From: an uncultured Chloroflexia bacterium | GTDB lineage: Bacteria; Chloroflexota; Limnocylindria; Limnocylindrales; CSP1-4 | Assembly: GCA_963736895.1 (NCBI GenBank) | Contig: CAVTQU010000008.1 | Location: forward strand, 436,535-500,534 | DNA: 64,000 nt | Direction: 5' to 3' | In this document: in pieces, positions 34,703 through 40,058 of the stretch | Layout: each line of letters begins with the position of its first letter | Numbering within the stretch: the first letter of the stretch is position 1 | Program-made: the position numbers and the translations under genes | The notes under the pieces: model-generated | The model's input: the letters and a program-made list of their open reading frames with translations, nothing else | The model's database searches: none | What the model was told of the DNA's origin: nothing

Positions 34703-35638
34703 TCAGATCAGGCGCTGACCGGTGGCGCTGTCCCAGCCGCCGGCCTGGCCTACTTTGCTGGCGAGCGGCTTGCCCAGCGCGTCGGCGATGAATCGAGCCG
34801 CCTCGAGCACGCCTGGCGAGGCGCGCGCCATGCTCGATTCCGAGCCCATCGAGCAGGTACACGAGATCCTCCGTCGCGAGATTTCCGGCCGCGCCGGGTG
34901 CGTACGGGCAGCCACCCGTGCCGCCGGTGGACGAGTCGAAGCAGGTGACGCCGTCCTCGAGCCCGGCTACCACGTTGGCCAGCGCAGTGCCCCGCGTGTC
35001 GTGGAAGTGGTAGGCGAGCTGATCGAGCGCAATTCCTGCCGCCGATCGTGGCCGCCGTCAGGTCATGGACCTGGCTGGGCACGCCGACGCCGATCGTGTC
35101 GCCGAGGCAGATCTCGTCGGCACCGAGGTCGACCAGCCGCTGGCTGACCTCGACCACCTTGTCGATCGCAACCGCGCCGGTGAAGGGGCAGCCGAACGCC
35201 GTGGAAACGTACGCGCGCTTCCACCAGCCAAGCTCGGTGGCGCGCATCAGGACCGGCGCGAAAAGCCTCGATTGACTCGTCGATCGTCATGCCGATGTTG
35301 CGGCGCGTGAACTCGTCGCTCGCGGCGGTGAACACGGCCAGCGCGTCCGCGCCAGCTGCCTCGGCGCGCTCCATGCCGCGCATGTTGGGGACGAGGACCG
35401 GGTAGCGAACGCCGTCGCGCGGCTGGTCGCGCAGAGCCGCCATCAGGTCGTCGGCGTCGGCGAGCTGCGGGATGGCGCTCGGTGACACGAAGCTCGTCGC
35501 CTCGATCTCGCGCAGCCCGGCGTCGCGGAGCAGCTCGATGTAGCGCAGCTTCGCCTCGGTCGAGATCGGCGTCGCTTCGTTCTGGAGGCCGTCGCGCGGC
35601 CCGACTTCGTAGATGCGGACGCGAGTTGGGTAATCCAT
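34703..35638 (-). CDS. liuE: Hydroxymethylglutaryl-CoA lyase (frameshifted)
   Basis: EVGPRDGLQNE, FGCPF, LGDTIG, GGCPYAPGAAGNLATEDL. Confidence 0.92.
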
Positions 35639-35676
35639 CGGCCATTCGAGTCTAGGCCGCGTCGCGCGATCGCGTT

Positions 35677-37715
35677 CTAGGTCAGTTCCACCAGCGTCTC
35701 GGTGCGCTGGACCTGCTGTCCGCGCTGGACCAGGACGCGCACGACACGGCCCGGCGCGGGCGCGGGAATCGTGTTTTCCATCTTCATCGCCTCGAGGACC
35801 ACCAGCACCTGGCCGGCCTCGACCGTGTCTCCCTCGGCCACTCGGACGTCAATCACGGTTCCGGGCATTGGCGCGGTCACGCTTTCACCGGCGGTGCCTT
35901 CGTGGGCTGCATGTCGCGCGGCCGACTTCGACGGTCGGCGCGGGAGCGAGCCGGGCAACGATCGACCGACCATCGAGATCCAGCACGACCGACCCATCCG
36001 ACCGCAGCGGCGACGGCTGCCGCCGGTGGCCTCGGCTGGACGCAGATCGACTGTCCGCTCCTCGTCGGCGATCTCGATTCGCAGGCGTGGTGGCGCGTTG
36101 AGCCGAAAGCCGACCCGCGGCCCGAGATCACGGGCTGCCTGGCTGGCGACCGCGGCGGCGCGGTCTGCCATGCATCGGCCGGCAGCGACTCGTCACCGTG
36201 CCAGCTGTCGTCGATCAGGCCCGTGTACATGTCCCCGGCGCGAACGTCAGATCGCGCGGTGAGCCAGCGCAGGAAGCCGCGGTTGGTGGTGACGCCCAGG
36301 ACGCTGGTGTCGTCCAGCGCGGTGCTCGAGCCGATCAAGTGACTCGGCACGATCAGCTCCGTGGGCGATCAGCTTGGCCAGCAGCGGGTCATATCTCGTT
36401 CCGACGACGTCGCCGCTGCCGATGCCGGCATCGACACGCAGACCGTCGATGCGTGGCCACTCGAGACCGATGATCTCGCCCGTTGCCGGAAGGAAGCCGG
36501 CATTCGGGTCCTCGGCGTACAGCCGTGCCTCGATTGCATGGCCATCAAATCGAATCGTGCTGGCTGGACGTCTCGAGTGGCTGCGCCGGACGCGATCGCG
36601 ATCTGGTCCGCCACCAGGTCGCGGCCGGTGACGAGCTCGGTCACCGGATGCTCCACCTGCAGGCGCGCGTTGACCTCCAGGAAGTAGAAGCTCCCGTCCG
36701 AGTCGAGCAGGAACTCGACGGTGCCGGCGCCGACGTAGCCGGAGGCACGGATCAAGGTCAGCGCCGCCTCGCCGAGACGTGCGCGCAGCGGCGCGTCGAC
36801 GACGAGCGAAGGCGCCTCTTCGATCACCTTCTGGTGGCGTCGCTGGAGCGAGCACTCACGCTCGCCGAGATGGATGGCGTTGCCGTGCGCGTCCGCGAGG
36901 ATCTGCACCTCGATGTGCCTCGGCCGCGGCGAGGTAGCGCTCCAGGATCAGCCGCTCGTCGCCGAATGAAGACTGTGCCTCGCGCCGTGCACGGGCGAGC
37001 GGTCTCGACCATCTCGGCAGGCTCGGCCACCACGTGCATGCCCTTGCCGCCACCGCCGGCGCTCGGCTTGACCAGCACCGGGAAACCGATTCGCTCGGCC
37101 TCGCCGGTGAGCGTCTCGATCGGACTGGTCGTCGCCGTCGTAGCCCGTCAGGACGGGACGCCGAGCCGCGCGGCCAGCTTGCGCGCAGCGGCCTTGTCGC
37201 CGACCGCACGCATCGCTTCTGGCGGTGGGCCGATCCAGACCAGGTTTGCGTCGATGACGGCCGCGGCGAACTCGGCGTTCTCGGCCAGGAAGCCGTAGCC
37301 GGGGTGGATCGCGTCGGCGCCGGACGCGCGCGCCGCGTCGAGGATGGCCGCACCATCGAGGTAGTTGCCGCGCAGAGGGCACGATCTCGTCGGTCGCGCC
37401 CGTCCACCAGGCGCGCGCCTGATCCTCTGCGACGAGCGCAAGAGAGCGGATGCCGAGCTGTCGGCAGGTTCGGGCAATGCGAACGACCAGCTCCCCGCGG
37501 TTGGCGACCAACAGGCGGCCGATCTTCCGCGGTGACGCTGAACTCGGACGCAGGTCCGCTGGCGGACAGGAGTCGGCGAGCGCGCTCGCGTCGACCTTGA
37601 CGCGTGATCCGACCTTGACCGACGGCAGCCGTCCCTCACGCAGCCACCGCTGCACCGTTCGAGTGCTGACTCCCAGCCGTCGGGCCGCCTCGCCCGGCCC
37701 AATCGCGTCGCTCAT
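35677..37715 (-). CDS. liuD: Methylcrotonyl/acyl-CoA carboxylase alpha subunit (BC-BCCP) with N-terminal Xis-like HTH (frameshifted downstream of the HTH-BC junction)
   Basis: [26 protein letters not shown]; [62 protein letters not shown] biotinylation site. Confidence 0.88.
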
Positions 37716-37750
37716 GACGCGAATGTCGCGTTTGTCGCGTTACATGTCAA
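37715..37750 (-). promoter_or_regulatory. Leaderless promoter overlapped by three 9-bp-period direct repeats
   Basis: TTGACA (37750-37745), 17 bp, GACATT (37727-37722), 6 nt, then ATG; repeats CGCGACA, CGCGACA, CGCGTCA. Confidence 0.7.
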
Positions 37751-37753
37751 CCG

Positions 37754-39945
37754 CTAGGGCAAGCGGCGTGCGGCAAAGACGGAGACCCAAGGCGTGAACG
37801 GACTGACGATTGCCGCTGGCATCGACTGCCCGGACGCGGTAGCGATAGGTCGCCTGCCGCGGTGCCCGATTGACGTACGAGGTGCCCGTCACTGTCGCGA
37901 TCCGAGTGCTGCCTCGAAAAACCCTGTATTTGAGTGGGCCACCCTGGTCGTCCACGCTTGGGCCCCAGGTGAGTCGGACCCGTCGTCCGTCCGAGAGGTT
38001 CGCCCTTGAAGTTGGTTGGCACGTTCGGCGGAGTTACGTCAACTGGATGCAGCCTCACCCGCGTGATAGCTGCGGATCCCACGTTTCCGGACGTGTCGAC
38101 GGCCGCGACTGTGTACTCGTATGTCGCGTTTGTCGGGAGCCCGGTGTCGACGAACACTCTCGTTCCGGCGAGCAGCGTCGTTACGAGCTCGCCGTCACGC
38201 CTCACCTCGTAGCCGAGCAGCCCGACGTTGTCCCTGGCCGCCAGCCATTTCAGTCGAGCGGACGATTCGCTGGTCATCGAGGCGGTCAGTCCGAAGACCT
38301 GGCCGGGAGGGCTCATGTCGGGGACCGCGAAATCAAGCGTTGCGGCCTCGCTGACATTGCCTGCGCCATCCACCGCGTAGACGCTGAACTGGTAGGTGAC
38401 ACCCTCTTCGATGCGGACGTCGATGAGCTCCAGCTCAGGCGTGGCGGCGTAAGCGAGACCATTTCGGAAAACGCGGTAGCCGTCGACGGCCACGTCGTCG
38501 GTCGCCGCGGACCAACGTAGCGTTCCGACTCGCGGGCCGTTGACTGAGCCTGTCAGATCGGCCGGTGCGGACGGTGGCGTTGTGTCGCCGCCACCTGGTG
38601 GCGGTGGTGGAGGGGGTGGGGCAGTGTCACGGCCTATCTGGATGGACACGTCGGCACCAGTCGAATCCACGGCCAGGACGGTGACGTAGATTTTGTTGAT
38701 CGGGTCCGCGAACGTCCGGCCAACTCTCAGCGGCGCGTCAGAGAACGAGCTCGTCTCGGGCATCGTGTCGATCAGCTTCGATCGGACGGCAGCTTGATCC
38801 GGCGCGATGCGAATCGTCACTCCGTTCGTGGCGGCCGATGTCGCGGAGAAGTCGTCGAACAGCCCGTACGGCTGGCGGTACTCGAGGTAGTAGTAGTCGC
38901 CGCCTGACTTCGGTACCCGCAGGACGCGCCTGCCGCTGCCCGCCGTCTCGGCCGGCGCAATGCGGTACTTCCCCTGCGCGGTCACAGTCTGAACTTCATC
39001 GGCAGCGACCAGTCCCAGGTGCATGCGATGCCAGTTGTGGAAATGGCGCTGTCCGGTGAAGCCCATCACGTCGAACGGATCGCCGTATTCATCCAGGGAG
39101 CAGTCAGACGAAAAAGCGACCCGCACGCCGTTCTTTTTGCAGATGAGCGCCGCTGCATGGTCGAGACCAAAGTTGTGGCCGAGCTCGTGGCTGGCCACAT
39201 ACGTCGTCAGCTCGCCGTTCACCCAGCTGTTGCGGCCGGGGACACTGGCCATGCCGGACCACCAGCAGCTCTCCTGGCGCGGGAACGCGTAGACCACGTT
39301 CGTGTACTGGGTCAGATCGATGCCCGCCCTCGCAGCGGCTCTTCGGGCAGCCGATCCCCAGTCGTTGTACTCACAGCGATAGGTGCTGGTGGCGAGCGTG
39401 AAATAGCCGAAGACGTCGCCCGACAGTGCCATCTGGCCACCGGACACCTCGGCGTAATAAGCGGCCACTGAGCGCTCTCCGCTGAAGTAGAGATCGTCGA
39501 CGGTGGCCTTGGTCCAAGGCACAGCAGGTGGGCCGCTCGACGGCTGCTGGAAGTTCAGCAGGAGCACGGCCACTCGCGGAGAGGTCGGCGCGAGGCTCTG
39601 CGCACCTGTCGAGTTGAGCGTTGCGCTCGGTCCGGCCACGGTGTCGGGAGAGTTGCTCACCTCGAGCGAAGTGCCGTCGCGGTGTCCAGCAAGGCGAACC
39701 TGGGTGCCAGGGAGGAGCTGCGATTCGTCGACGCCGATCAGGACAAGGCGTCCACTGCCTGTGTCGAGCATCGCGACACGGCTCGACGTGCGACTGGCGA
39801 ACTCGTCAGCTACATCGAACGTGACGCGGCCAGCCACGATTTCGTCCGAGCCGGCAGCGATTGCCGCGTCCGGTATCGCCAGCGCGGCTGTGGCGATGAG
39901 CATCAATCCGACTGCGAGTTTGTGCTTGGTGACGGCCAAACCCAT
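37754..39945 (-). CDS. Secreted M11-like metzincin metallopeptidase with three FN3 repeats (3' frameshifts)
   Basis: Signal peptide; HELGHNFGLDH, EYGDPFDVMG Met-turn; DTTPPSAP, PDMSPPGQV and DVTPPNVP FN3 starts. Confidence 0.85.
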
Positions 39946-40058
39946 TCCCCTCTGACCGCATGCCAAAGGCCAGCCCGCGGACCGATTGTCCGATGCGCCT
40001 CAGTGGAGCAACGTGGTCCCTAATGGCCAGACAGGCAGGCACTTGCGGAGGCCGCTGA

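Follow-up and report, generated by a model that had tools for sequence, protein, structure and literature searches.

Conserved 9-bp direct repeats over the promoter of a helix-turn-helix-fused carboxylase gene in Limnocylindrales: a candidate autoregulatory operator

A conserved repeat element overlaps the promoter of a gene that encodes a biotin-dependent carboxylase subunit with an N-terminal helix-turn-helix (HTH) domain, in a Limnocylindrales (Chloroflexota) MAG with a 3.0-Mb genome. The repeat unit, CGCG(A/T)CA plus two bases that are mostly A or T, runs head to tail over the promoter spacer, the -10 and the start point. The element overlaps the carboxylase gene's own promoter and is a candidate operator, to which we infer that the fusion protein binds. 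The reading that we favor, with a probability of about 0.7, is that the repeats are a local operator on which the fused HTH would assemble head to tail, resulting in negative autoregulation of a leaderless promoter. The relevant features of the window (the whole 64-kb stretch of DNA that was analysed) are as follows.

37750-37745, minus strand: -35 hexamer TTGACA, read from the sequence; 6/6 consensus match
37744-37728, minus strand: spacer of 17 nt, read from the sequence
37727-37722, minus strand: -10 hexamer GACATT, the last six bases of R2
37715-37713, minus strand: ATG start codon, with 6 nt between GACATT and ATG
37731..37739, minus strand: R1, CGCGACAaa, within the 17-nt spacer (7-mer at 37739-37733)
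37722..37730, minus strand: R2, CGCGACAtt, including the -10 (7-mer CGCGACA at 37730-37724)
37713..37721, minus strand: R3, CGCGTCAtg, over the predicted transcription start and the ATG (7-mer at 37721-37715)
37704..37712, minus strand: weak fourth unit, aGCGACgcg, in codons 2-4 (Ser-Asp-Ala; 7-mer AGCGACG at 37712-37706)
37700..37725, no strand: inverted repeat CATTCGCGTC / GACGCGATTG around ATGAGC, 9/10 positions complementary
37575..37715, minus strand: N-terminal winged HTH, residues 1-47 (PF12728 HTH_17)
35677..37715, minus strand: HTH-fused biotin carboxylase / biotin carrier subunit gene of the methylcrotonyl-CoA carboxylase (MCC) alpha type; domains by Pfam
34750..35638, minus strand: HMG-CoA lyase gene, split by a frame change (PF00682, NF004283)
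37747..39966, minus strand: M11-like peptidase gene with fn3 domains, upstream and co-directional, its 3' end reaching the -35

Three head-to-tail 9-bp repeats had been described here, together with a perfect TTGACA 17 bp from GACATT and an ATG 6 nt further on, and reading of the minus strand bore out the coordinates, the period and the promoter geometry. R1 to R3 keep an exact 9-bp period (plus-strand starts at 37733, 37724 and 37715), which the weak fourth unit continues after R3; this last unit may be a by-product of coding. The geometry fits a leaderless sigma-70-type promoter, with a -35/-10 spacing within the 17 +/- 1 nt criterion and the A of the ATG only 7 nt past the -10, a space too short for a ribosome-binding site. 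No purine-rich stretch was seen between the -10 and the ATG, and the start codon lies at the predicted start point without a Shine-Dalgarno sequence. A simple sigma-70 promoter scanner (threshold 4/6 per hexamer) called no promoter at the array because GACATT has just three of six matches to TATAAT (A2, A4 and T6). An in-frame TAA at 37742-37740 on the minus strand excludes a start codon farther upstream. For the same reason we rejected the idea that the conserved block encodes an N-terminal protein extension (in-frame (R/H)DKRDI): the block has no start codon ahead of it, and the block-to-start distance varies by 6-9 nt among relatives, shifting the frame.

Relatives were located by a contig scan with the HTH pattern alone; the generic RLLVANRGE pattern saturated the output. 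We aligned 41 related sites, 39 of them promoter sites of distinct homologous fusions of the same type. A 20-nt block comprising R1 and R2, AACGCGACAAACGCGACATT, was near-invariant across the 41 sites (1.1-2.0 bits per position), and each position of TTGACA was kept in 28-37 of them (0.9-1.4 bits per position). The three bases between TTGACA and the block, as well as all flanks, carried <0.5 bits, whatever the upstream gene; that gene differs in relatives (enoyl-CoA hydratase, membrane protein), and the promoter block is kept regardless. The spacer is 17 nt, or 18 nt in a few relatives, and the start codon follows the -10 at a distance of 6-9 nt. R1 had a mean match to CGCGWCA of 6.4/7 (39 loci) and R2 of 6.6/7, with the G, A, C and A of R2 invariant in 41/41 sites. 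R3 is perfect in the window and degenerate in the clade, where its in-phase mean match was 3.6/7 (39 loci); it reached at least 5/7 at 19/39 loci in phase versus 0-4 loci at out-of-phase offsets. The fourth unit averaged 2.5/7 and was kept solely at loci with an MSDA- or VSDA-type N-terminus. The alignment demonstrates strong selection on R1, R2 and the -35 in the window's clade. Of the three repeats described originally, only R1 and R2 are strongly conserved within the window's genus; R3 is conserved weakly there, degenerate but in phase.

Fusions from more distant genera, 57 in number, carry two units, nGCGACA(A/C)T-CGCG(A/C/T)CA, placed 2-3 nt before the ATG. Unit 1 (GCGACAAT) is the counterpart of R2, and unit 2 (CGCGNCA) is the counterpart of R3. 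TTGCnn occurs 17 nt upstream of GACAAT in many of these fusions (nine inspected by eye), with about 9 nt or more between the -10 and the start codon. Here the comparison establishes that the R2 and R3 equivalents are under strong selection. The expectation that the repeats would recur upstream of homologous fusions was therefore borne out, by a near-invariant -35, R1 and R2 at 39 loci and by two units at the 57 distant ones. The distant loci also contain an antisense array inside the HTH-coding region, at about +119, with at least two units in 53/57 loci and three in 47/57. Synonymous codons are frozen over this internal array: Arg is CGT, Val is GTC and Ala is GCG (each 18/18), Phe is TTT (10/10), and Leu is confined to TTA, TTG or CTT. 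At invariant Arg, Val, Ala and Gly residues elsewhere in the same alignment, which served as a control, 3-6 codons are in use. The frozen codons of this sister clade show clearly how a regulatory code in DNA can be laid over a protein code.

We considered whether the block might be promoter sequence alone, that is, core elements plus a spacer or discriminator preference of the housekeeping or an alternative sigma factor, with no dedicated repressor and with incidental repeats. The -35 and -10 do fall within the conserved block, GACA is common to both hexamers (TTGACA, GACATT), and RNA polymerase contacts with promoter spacers are known. However, the spacer bases are as invariant as the hexamers, which would be unexpected from sigma contacts alone, distant genera carry the repeat unit past the -10 as well, and the block is found at no other promoter in the genome. 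Moreover, an antisense array in a coding region, with three units at 47 of the 57 distant loci and frozen codons, cannot be a promoter element. We consider this explanation improbable.

Complementarity within the region raises a different alternative, in which an upstream transcription start (e.g., read-through from the gene before it) would place the repeats in a 5' leader, where they would pair downstream and mask the start codon. They would pair with codons 3-4 (GACGCG) in the window and with the antisense internal array in distant genera. Unit 3 indeed pairs as an inverted repeat with codons 3-4 (CATTCGCGTC-atgagc-GACGCGATTG), a compensated variant of this inverted repeat around the ATG is present at one related locus (L013: GGCGTC...GACGCC), and the upstream units of the distant genera are complementary to the internal array at 16/18 positions (manual pairing). 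Nevertheless, the inverted repeat is kept in only some relatives and the start-codon hairpin in few, and the best-conserved units, R1 and R2, are without a complementary partner in the window's clade, where synonymous sites downstream of the promoter are free. In the distant genera, unit 2 has A, C or T at its middle position against a fixed internal array, so that there is no compensation. The promoter geometry, in turn, predicts a leaderless transcript that would lack the upstream arm. An RNA element therefore seems very unlikely.

The exact triple CGCGWCA-N2 array has a single occurrence over both strands of the 3.02-Mb genome, compared with about 2e-4 triple arrays expected per genome from the 7-mer frequency. 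Allowing up to two mismatches, we found 2 overlapping matches in the 64-kb window versus a mean of 0.01 in 100 dinucleotide-preserving shuffles of it; the second match arises because the weak fourth unit extends the period. CGCGWC-like words are common at 66% G+C (14,063 CGCGWC words in this genome), so that three repeats might be put down to chance or to slippage, without function. The expected counts speak against such an origin, conservation in about 100 genomes of related soil bacteria refutes it, and we assign it a negligible probability.

A genome scan for CGCGWCA-N2 arrays had been suggested as a way to define a regulon. Our PWM scan of the window's genome revealed no second non-coding site and no regulon, an outcome that fits a purely local, autoregulatory site. 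Several coding matches were judged coincidental: the second-best PWM match (C11:387969), which encodes the DnaE motif QYDKRDIE; matches of about 20 bits in sister genomes, which correspond to the same DnaE motif (checked in the window's genome and in genome G006); the third match (C2:32402), inside a 1146-aa ORF; and a near-copy at about position 38139 of the window, inside an fn3 coding region (PTNATYEY). An order-wide pattern search for three GCGWCA units was noisy, also matching exact 9-bp tandem repeats that encode tripeptide repeats, and was used solely to locate arrays at fusion genes.

The repeats were also sought at seven HTH-less orthologues from five genera, and none were found. Among the orthologues compared, the motif is demonstrably present with HTH-carrying ones only, and its occurrence follows that of the fused HTH through more than 17 genera. 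One genome of the window's own genus (G004) has lost the HTH and the promoter together; a single deletion could have removed both, and the loci that combine HTH and repeats cluster in the phylogeny.

This distribution bears on the possibility that the repeats are the operator of an unlinked factor, either an HTH_17/BldC-like protein or a regulator of leucine catabolism, and that the fused HTH has some other role. The genome does encode three other HTH_17 proteins, one of them a stand-alone, 64-aa BldC-like protein. The recognition helices of these proteins differ from that of the fused HTH, however, and no regulator gene is a conserved neighbor, the upstream genes being different between genomes. 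A general regulator with no other target site in the genome would also be odd. That the motif follows the fused HTH from genus to genus and is absent from HTH-less orthologues speaks against an unlinked factor, too. We therefore consider an unlinked factor unlikely, although less so than the promoter-only and RNA explanations.

The fused domain matched PF12728 HTH_17 with E = 3e-10 (40.6 bits vs. a cut-off of 27), and on an intact orthologue TIGR01764 "excise" was matched with E = 6.8e-11 (42.4 bits vs. a cut-off of 28.8). A match to the MerR HTH family PF00376 (E = 3.9e-7) covers the first part of the model alone (positions 2-27 of 38), and the next domain after the HTH is Biotin_carb_N, without a MerR-type coiled-coil dimerisation helix or effector-binding domain. 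An AF2 model of the HTH comprises H7-14, H18-27, E32-35 and E38-42, with a pLDDT of 74-85 up to residue 40 and of about 65 for residues 41-50; the linker beyond is disordered. The top Foldseek matches were Pukovnik Xis, BldC, RacA and RdfS (TM 0.73 for Xis, and 0.70-0.73 for BldC at an rmsd of 1.7-1.9 A). A PDB sequence search with the HTH gave Pukovnik Xis (E = 4e-5), RacA (3.5e-4) and BldC (0.065), and WD40 matches in the same search were dismissed as repeat artefacts. Across 15 relatives, 20 of the 46 HTH alignment columns are invariant. Unlike stand-alone family members of about 55-75 residues, this HTH is fused, with a linker of roughly 15-35 residues to the biotin carboxylase, and 226 database proteins combine HTH_17 and BC domains.

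All four carboxylase domains (BC-N, ATP-grasp, BC-C and biotinyl) were identified by Pfam, on separate ORF pieces in the window and within one intact ORF of 660-700 aa in relatives. At least seven frame changes break the carboxylase gene in the assembly. These were mapped against an intact 660-aa orthologue by ungapped HSPs; gapped tblastn ran through the frame changes and masked them. There were no obvious homopolymers at the frame-change points, and we claim no homopolymer error signature. The frame changes are probably assembly errors; if they are instead real, the circuit would be dead in this organism. The C-terminal reading frame of the M11-like peptidase gene appears shifted as well. 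The HMG-CoA lyase gene lies about 38 nt past the carboxylase stop on the same strand and is probably co-transcribed from the repeat-bearing promoter. Its position directly downstream, along with an enoyl-CoA hydratase gene that lies upstream within the window and is the immediate neighbor in many relatives, provides a leucine-catabolism context. NCBIfam assigned to the carboxylase generic biotin-carboxylase models alone, with scores below their cut-offs, and some JGI records label it an MCC alpha subunit.

In the circuit that we propose, the operator would lie within a sigma-70-type leaderless promoter that drives the HTH-fused MCC alpha gene and probably the HMG-CoA lyase gene. The product's own Xis/BldC-like winged HTH would occupy the repeats head to tail, with each 9-bp unit taking one protomer, and its presence on the spacer, the -10 and the start site would keep RNA polymerase out, such that the enzyme represses its own synthesis. 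Avidity may come from the multimeric state of the enzyme, since MCC alpha subunits form trimeric caps (PMC12776079), and release might occur through a metabolic or assembly signal. We favor repression over activation, at odds of roughly three to one, because the -10 and the start site both lie under repeat units and because a spacer of 17 nt is already optimal. The original prediction had named the repeats as the cognate operator of the fused HTH, completing an autoregulatory circuit. The absence of the repeats from the HTH-less orthologues and the kinship of the HTH with Pukovnik Xis, BldC and RacA support that proposal; the binding of the HTH itself is what we infer from them.

A more tentative extension, which we think may well not hold, is that the carboxylase is a trigger enzyme of leucine catabolism. 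The HTHs of an alpha3 cap would match three-unit arrays, and beta assembly, biotinylation or acyl-CoA would set promoter occupancy. The sister-clade protein might additionally bind an operator in its own wing codons (at about +119, antisense), looping or roadblocking its own gene. If this were true, one and the same stretch of sequence would specify both the binding domain of the protein and the site that it binds.

The closest mechanistic precedent is Streptomyces BldC (PDB 6AMA, 6AMK), which had already been cited as a model for head-to-tail binding. That precedent holds: at promoters, BldC protomers line up head to tail along direct repeats, each protomer taking one 9-bp unit and each site having 2 to 4 of them (PMC5859096). 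BldC has the same small winged-HTH fold without a coiled coil, and its period and unit numbers match the array. In contrast, BldC acts as a free protein of 68 residues, governs a large developmental regulon and recognizes an AT-rich unit, AATTnnnnC (PMC5859096), whereas the HTH described here forms the N-terminal end of a carboxylase (about 670 residues), with a GC-rich unit, CGCGWCA, and its sole site at its own promoter. By both sequence and fold, Pukovnik Xis (PDB 4J2N) is the closest solved relative of the fused HTH. Mycobacteriophage Xis-type proteins bind cooperatively to direct-repeat arrays, the type of array seen here, but unlike the fusion they are stand-alone recombination directionality factors or phage gene regulators. 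One Xis-like protein, D29 Gp36, recognizes GC-rich direct repeats and acts as a repressor of the genes downstream (PMC12266134); its repeats are 15-19 nt apart, compared to 9 nt here.

Bacillus subtilis RacA (PDB 5I41, 5I44) has a MerR-like winged HTH and a GC-rich half-site, GGCGTCA (in TGACGCCGGCGTCA; PMC4914108), that resembles CGCGTCA and CGCGACA. It differs in binding an inverted repeat as a symmetric dimer held by a coiled coil, and it is a chromosome anchor with no promoter regulation. The MerR activators CueR, SoxR and BmrR share the N-terminal HTH type and an operator between the -35 and the -10. Classical MerR proteins, however, possess a coiled-coil dimerisation helix and an effector domain and recognize a palindrome in 19-20-bp spacers, as opposed to the direct repeats, 17-bp spacer and lack of a coiled coil found here.

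Biotin-dependent carboxylases are textbook enzymes. Our literature search turned up no subunit of a biotin-dependent carboxylase that carries a sequence-specific DNA-binding domain and has an operator of its own, and no description of an HTH-carboxylase fusion; the "helix-turn-helix" mentioned in a Legionella MCC preprint refers to a structural motif within the beta subunit. The system is ready to test: the candidate operator spans 27-36 bp and has a well-defined unit, natural variants number about 100 in two architectures, and natural HTH-less controls are available. Its hosts, the soil Limnocylindrales, are abundant, uncultured Chloroflexota.

Enzymes that control their own transcription are few. 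Among these trigger enzymes, BirA is both the biotin ligase and the repressor of the bio operon, and PutA is both proline dehydrogenase and the put repressor. The fusion resembles them in having an N-terminal DNA-binding domain on a metabolic enzyme and a candidate operator at the promoter of its own pathway, an arrangement that would couple the state of the enzyme to transcription. As in proteins of the BirA and PutA type, the HTH and the enzyme are in one polypeptide, which is uninterrupted in dozens of relatives. The differences lie in the DNA-binding folds and in the enzymes: BirA binds an inverted repeat as a dimer through a winged HTH, and PutA uses a ribbon-helix-helix. If the circuit works as we propose, a metabolic enzyme can acquire the head-to-tail binding mode of Xis and BldC through fusion, and a new class would be added to the short list of self-repressing enzymes represented by BirA and PutA.

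Read directly on the minus strand of the window, the promoter of the HTH-carboxylase gene is arranged as listed below.

Promoter features of the HTH-carboxylase gene (window coordinates)
37750-37700, minus strand: promoter region sequence, TTGACAtgtaaCGCGACAaaCGCGACAttCGCGTCATGagcGACGCGatt
37750-37745, minus strand: -35 hexamer, TTGACA
37744-37728, minus strand: 17-nt spacer
37727-37722, minus strand: -10, GACATT
37715-37713, minus strand: ATG, its A lying 7 nt past the last T of GACATT
37712-37706, minus strand: weak fourth unit aGCGACg, extending the 9-bp period into codons 2-4

The ATG is fixed as the start because an in-frame TAA lies at 37742-37740 and no start codon intervenes. CGCGWCA 7-mers begin at 37739 (unit R1), 37730 (R2), and 37721 (R3) in minus-strand coordinates, giving three units with a period of exactly 9 bp. 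The original prediction had placed the repeats correctly, including the exact period, and its TTGACA, 17-nt spacer, GACATT, and ATG 6 nt on are as read here. That the repeats arose by chance has a next to negligible probability: the exact triple CGCGWCA array occurs once in the 3.02-Mb genome, compared to ~2e-4 expected from the 7-mer frequency, and dinucleotide-preserving shuffles of the window (n = 100) gave 0.01 array matches with two mismatches permitted. We conclude that the triple array is real. An inverted repeat (CATTCGCGTC / GACGCGATTG) also flanks ATGAGC at window positions 37700-37725; it is retained in one relative (L013) through a compensated change (GGCGTC...GACGCC) and absent from most others.

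The ORF from this ATG encodes an HTH_17/MerR-type helix-turn-helix at residues 8-47 (PF12728, E = 3e-10), joined by an ~18-residue linker to the biotin carboxylase N-terminus. Beyond that N-terminus the carboxylase gene is split into several ORF pieces in the window assembly, with at least seven frame changes from 37378 to 35940 relative to an intact 660-aa orthologue. The HMG-CoA lyase gene (34750-35638) is split by at least one frame change, and the upstream peptidase/fn3 gene (739-aa ORF) has a split, out-of-frame C-terminus, all of these within window 34750-39966. Since the genome (3.0 Mb, 11 contigs) scores only 59% completeness, assembly indels are the likely cause. With an enoyl-CoA hydratase upstream of the carboxylase and the HMG-CoA lyase directly downstream, the gene context is that of leucine catabolism, and orthologues are named 3-methylcrotonyl-CoA carboxylase (MCC) alpha subunit in some databases. 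The close relatives are Chloroflexota MAGs bearing the label Candidatus Limnocylindrales or Limnocylindria; several belong to one MAG series whose contigs are very large. A Limnocylindrales-type locus was also present on contigs labelled Egibacteraceae, Sulfotelmatobacter, and Caenarcaniphilales (loci L031 and L070 and protein P0034), which are likely mis-binned contigs or mislabelled MAGs.

Within the genus, ~27 of 31 genomes have the fusion, which also occurs in three sister genera, mostly as an uninterrupted ORF; when GTDB species representatives were searched with only the HTH, 39 loci emerged, all of them fused (three frameshift-broken). In an alignment of 41 distinct sites, TTGACA carried 0.9-1.4 bits per position, the three bases after it ~0.1 bit, and a 20-nt block (AACGCGACAAACGCGACATT) 1.1-2.0 bits per position, six of its positions being invariant; 3' of the block came a C (0.7 bit) and a G (0.4 bit), then noise alone. 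The block is retained regardless of whether the upstream gene encodes the hydratase, the fn3 protein, or another product, indicating that R1, R2, and the -35 are under strong purifying selection, which covers spacer positions beyond what a sigma factor alone would fix. R3 was compared with CGCGWCA, in exact 9-bp register, in the 39 aligned sites that are promoter sites; it averaged 3.6/7 and reached at least 5/7 in 19 of these 39 loci, vs. 0-4 loci at offsets of -4 to +6, and was perfect in the window and one other locus. Of the three repeats originally proposed, R1 and R2 are thus strongly conserved in the window's genus, but R3 appears there as a weak, degenerate unit that keeps the phase; its counterpart in the sister clade is strongly conserved. 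At all loci of the window's clade the start codon falls 6-9 nt past GACATT, a gap too short for a ribosome-binding site, which supports a leaderless transcript. A stretch in the fn3 coding region at ~38123-38139 on the minus strand (CCGACAAACGCGACATA, encoding PTNATYEY) shares an exact run of 15 bases with the operator block, on the same strand and 400 nt upstream of the promoter; this likeness is probably coincidental.

Of the 32 genera represented by 201 sampled genomes of the order, 17 have the fusion. We retrieved 57 loci from the distant genera, with N-terminal regions 45-55% identical to that of the window, and all 57 have two 9-bp units just upstream of the ATG. Their motif reads nGCGACA(A/C)T-CGCG(A/C/T)CA, then 2-3 nt and the ATG; the -10 (GACAAT) lies within the first unit, and TTGCnn stands 17 nt upstream of GACAAT in many loci (nine checked by eye). 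When the alignment is anchored on the -10, R2 and R3 of the window match these two units, and R1, the spacer unit, is an addition in the window's clade. Footprinting upstream of homologous fusions, as the original prediction had suggested, therefore bore it out, both in the retained block and -35 and in these paired units. In one distant locus (L127; G123:C117) the promoter motif gatGCGCGACAATCGCG precedes the fusion gene as a tandem duplicate, its copies ~27 nt apart. Loci L084-L088, from one distant genus, have an extra antisense two-unit motif (GTCGCGTTTGTCGTGTT) ~100 nt before the ATG, where the upstream membrane-protein gene ends (3' end); there it codes for VAFVVF, and may be either a third operator or a coincidence of coding.

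The distant genera (loci L074-L092 and L114-L151) also carry an antisense three-unit CGCGWCA array inside the gene, at ~+119 to +145 counted from the start codon (at +119 in 38 loci), with at least two units in 53/57 loci and three in 47/57. In the sense direction it is TGTCGCgtyTGACGCgttnGACGC, coding for WRVA(F/S)DA(F/L)DA where the HTH domain ends. Synonymous codons are frozen across the array (Arg as CGT, Val as GTC, and Ala as GCG, each 18/18; Phe as TTT, 10/10; Leu restricted to TTA, a rare codon, TTG, or CTT), whereas elsewhere in that alignment invariant Arg, Val, Ala, and Gly residues are written with 3-6 different codons, indicating that selection acts on the DNA or RNA sequence and not on the protein alone. 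The window's clade shows free variation at the equivalent codons and thus has no internal element. This internal array, together with the spacer invariance, contradicts the idea that the conservation reflects the promoter alone, which we consider distinctly improbable. An RNA helix formed by the repeats is more doubtful still, since R1 and R2 have no pairing partner in the window's clade, the sister clade shows no compensation (unit 2 is variable, the internal array fixed), and a leaderless transcript would be missing the upstream arm.

HTH-less MCC-alpha orthologues from five genera had no upstream repeats (genomes G004, G076, G093, G129, G097, G115, and G082). G004 (L029 / L094, G004:C90) belongs to the window's own genus and the other six lie elsewhere; it is a natural deletion variant that has lost everything from the promoter, including the promoter block, through the HTH end, and its carboxylase starts at a TTG that overlaps the enoyl-CoA hydratase stop codon (TGA), a case of translational coupling. 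Another genome, G080, first scored as fusion-less, has a frameshifted fusion with both arrays. When the window's genome was scanned with the PWM, no further non-coding site turned up; the search for further sites proposed originally thus yielded no regulon, but an element private to the HTH-carboxylase gene. We rejected one candidate, the DnaE-type polymerase motif QYDKRDIE (CAGTACGACAAACGCGACATCGAG; C11:387951-387971 of the window's genome, G000, and L154 in G006), as a coding mimic of the operator; it was inspected in these two genomes, and similar ~20-bit matches exist in other genus genomes. The window's genome encodes three other HTH_17 proteins (C3:370684-370842, C8:37215-37364, and C3:114694-114840): one is a 64-aa stand-alone, BldC-like protein, one lies N-terminally in a 952-aa open frame, and one precedes what, by eye, may be a molybdate-binding (TOBE-like) segment. 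Any of these might bind the repeats instead, but their recognition helices differ, and we regard binding by another protein as unlikely.

By sequence, the nearest solved structures to the fused domain are Pukovnik Xis (E = 4e-5), RacA (3.5e-4), and BldC (0.065). An AlphaFold model of the N-terminal 75 residues shows a helix, turn, helix, and two-stranded wing (pLDDT 74-85 for the first 40 HTH residues, ~65 for 41-50), and Foldseek ranked Pukovnik Xis (TM 0.73), BldC (TM 0.70-0.73, rmsd 1.7-1.9 A), RacA, and the RdfS excisionase in that order. These belong to precisely the group of MerR-like winged HTH proteins in which a dimerisation helix is missing and assembly takes place on DNA. Among 15 relatives, 20 of 46 HTH alignment columns are invariant, and the linker after the HTH is unconserved. 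BldC binds direct repeats head to tail, each 9-bp unit taking one protomer and each promoter holding 2-4 units (PMC5859096), the Xis-like D29 Gp36 represses transcription via GC-rich direct repeats (PMC12266134), and the RacA half-site, GGCGTCA (PMC4914108), resembles the CGCGWCA unit.

The promoter-like geometry is conserved and puts the start codon where transcription is predicted to begin, and the conserved 9-bp direct-repeat element spans the spacer, -10, and start point and is strictly associated with orthologues bearing the Xis/BldC-like domain. Every computational test available supports the original reading of the repeats as the operator of the fused HTH in an autoregulatory circuit. 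We propose that the HTH would bind the 9-bp repeats head to tail, cover the -10 and start site, and so repress its own gene, and probably the following HMG-CoA lyase gene as well. Since the units reach over the start site and the spacer already measures 17 nt, we favour repression over activation in the MerR style. MCC alpha subunits form trimeric caps (PMC12776079), and three HTH domains tethered to one cap might engage a three-unit array with high avidity; speculatively, assembly state or ligand state could be the switch.

We found 226 database proteins of the fusion type, annotated automatically as, for example, 'excisionase family DNA binding protein' or 'MCC alpha subunit', and a full-text literature search found no description of the HTH-carboxylase fusion or its operator. 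Unlike classical MerR systems, the fusion has no coiled coil, palindrome, or long spacer. It resembles BldC and Xis in its proposed action on direct repeats, although those are stand-alone proteins and this domain is fused to a carboxylase, and it would resemble BirA and PutA as an enzyme controlling its own genes.
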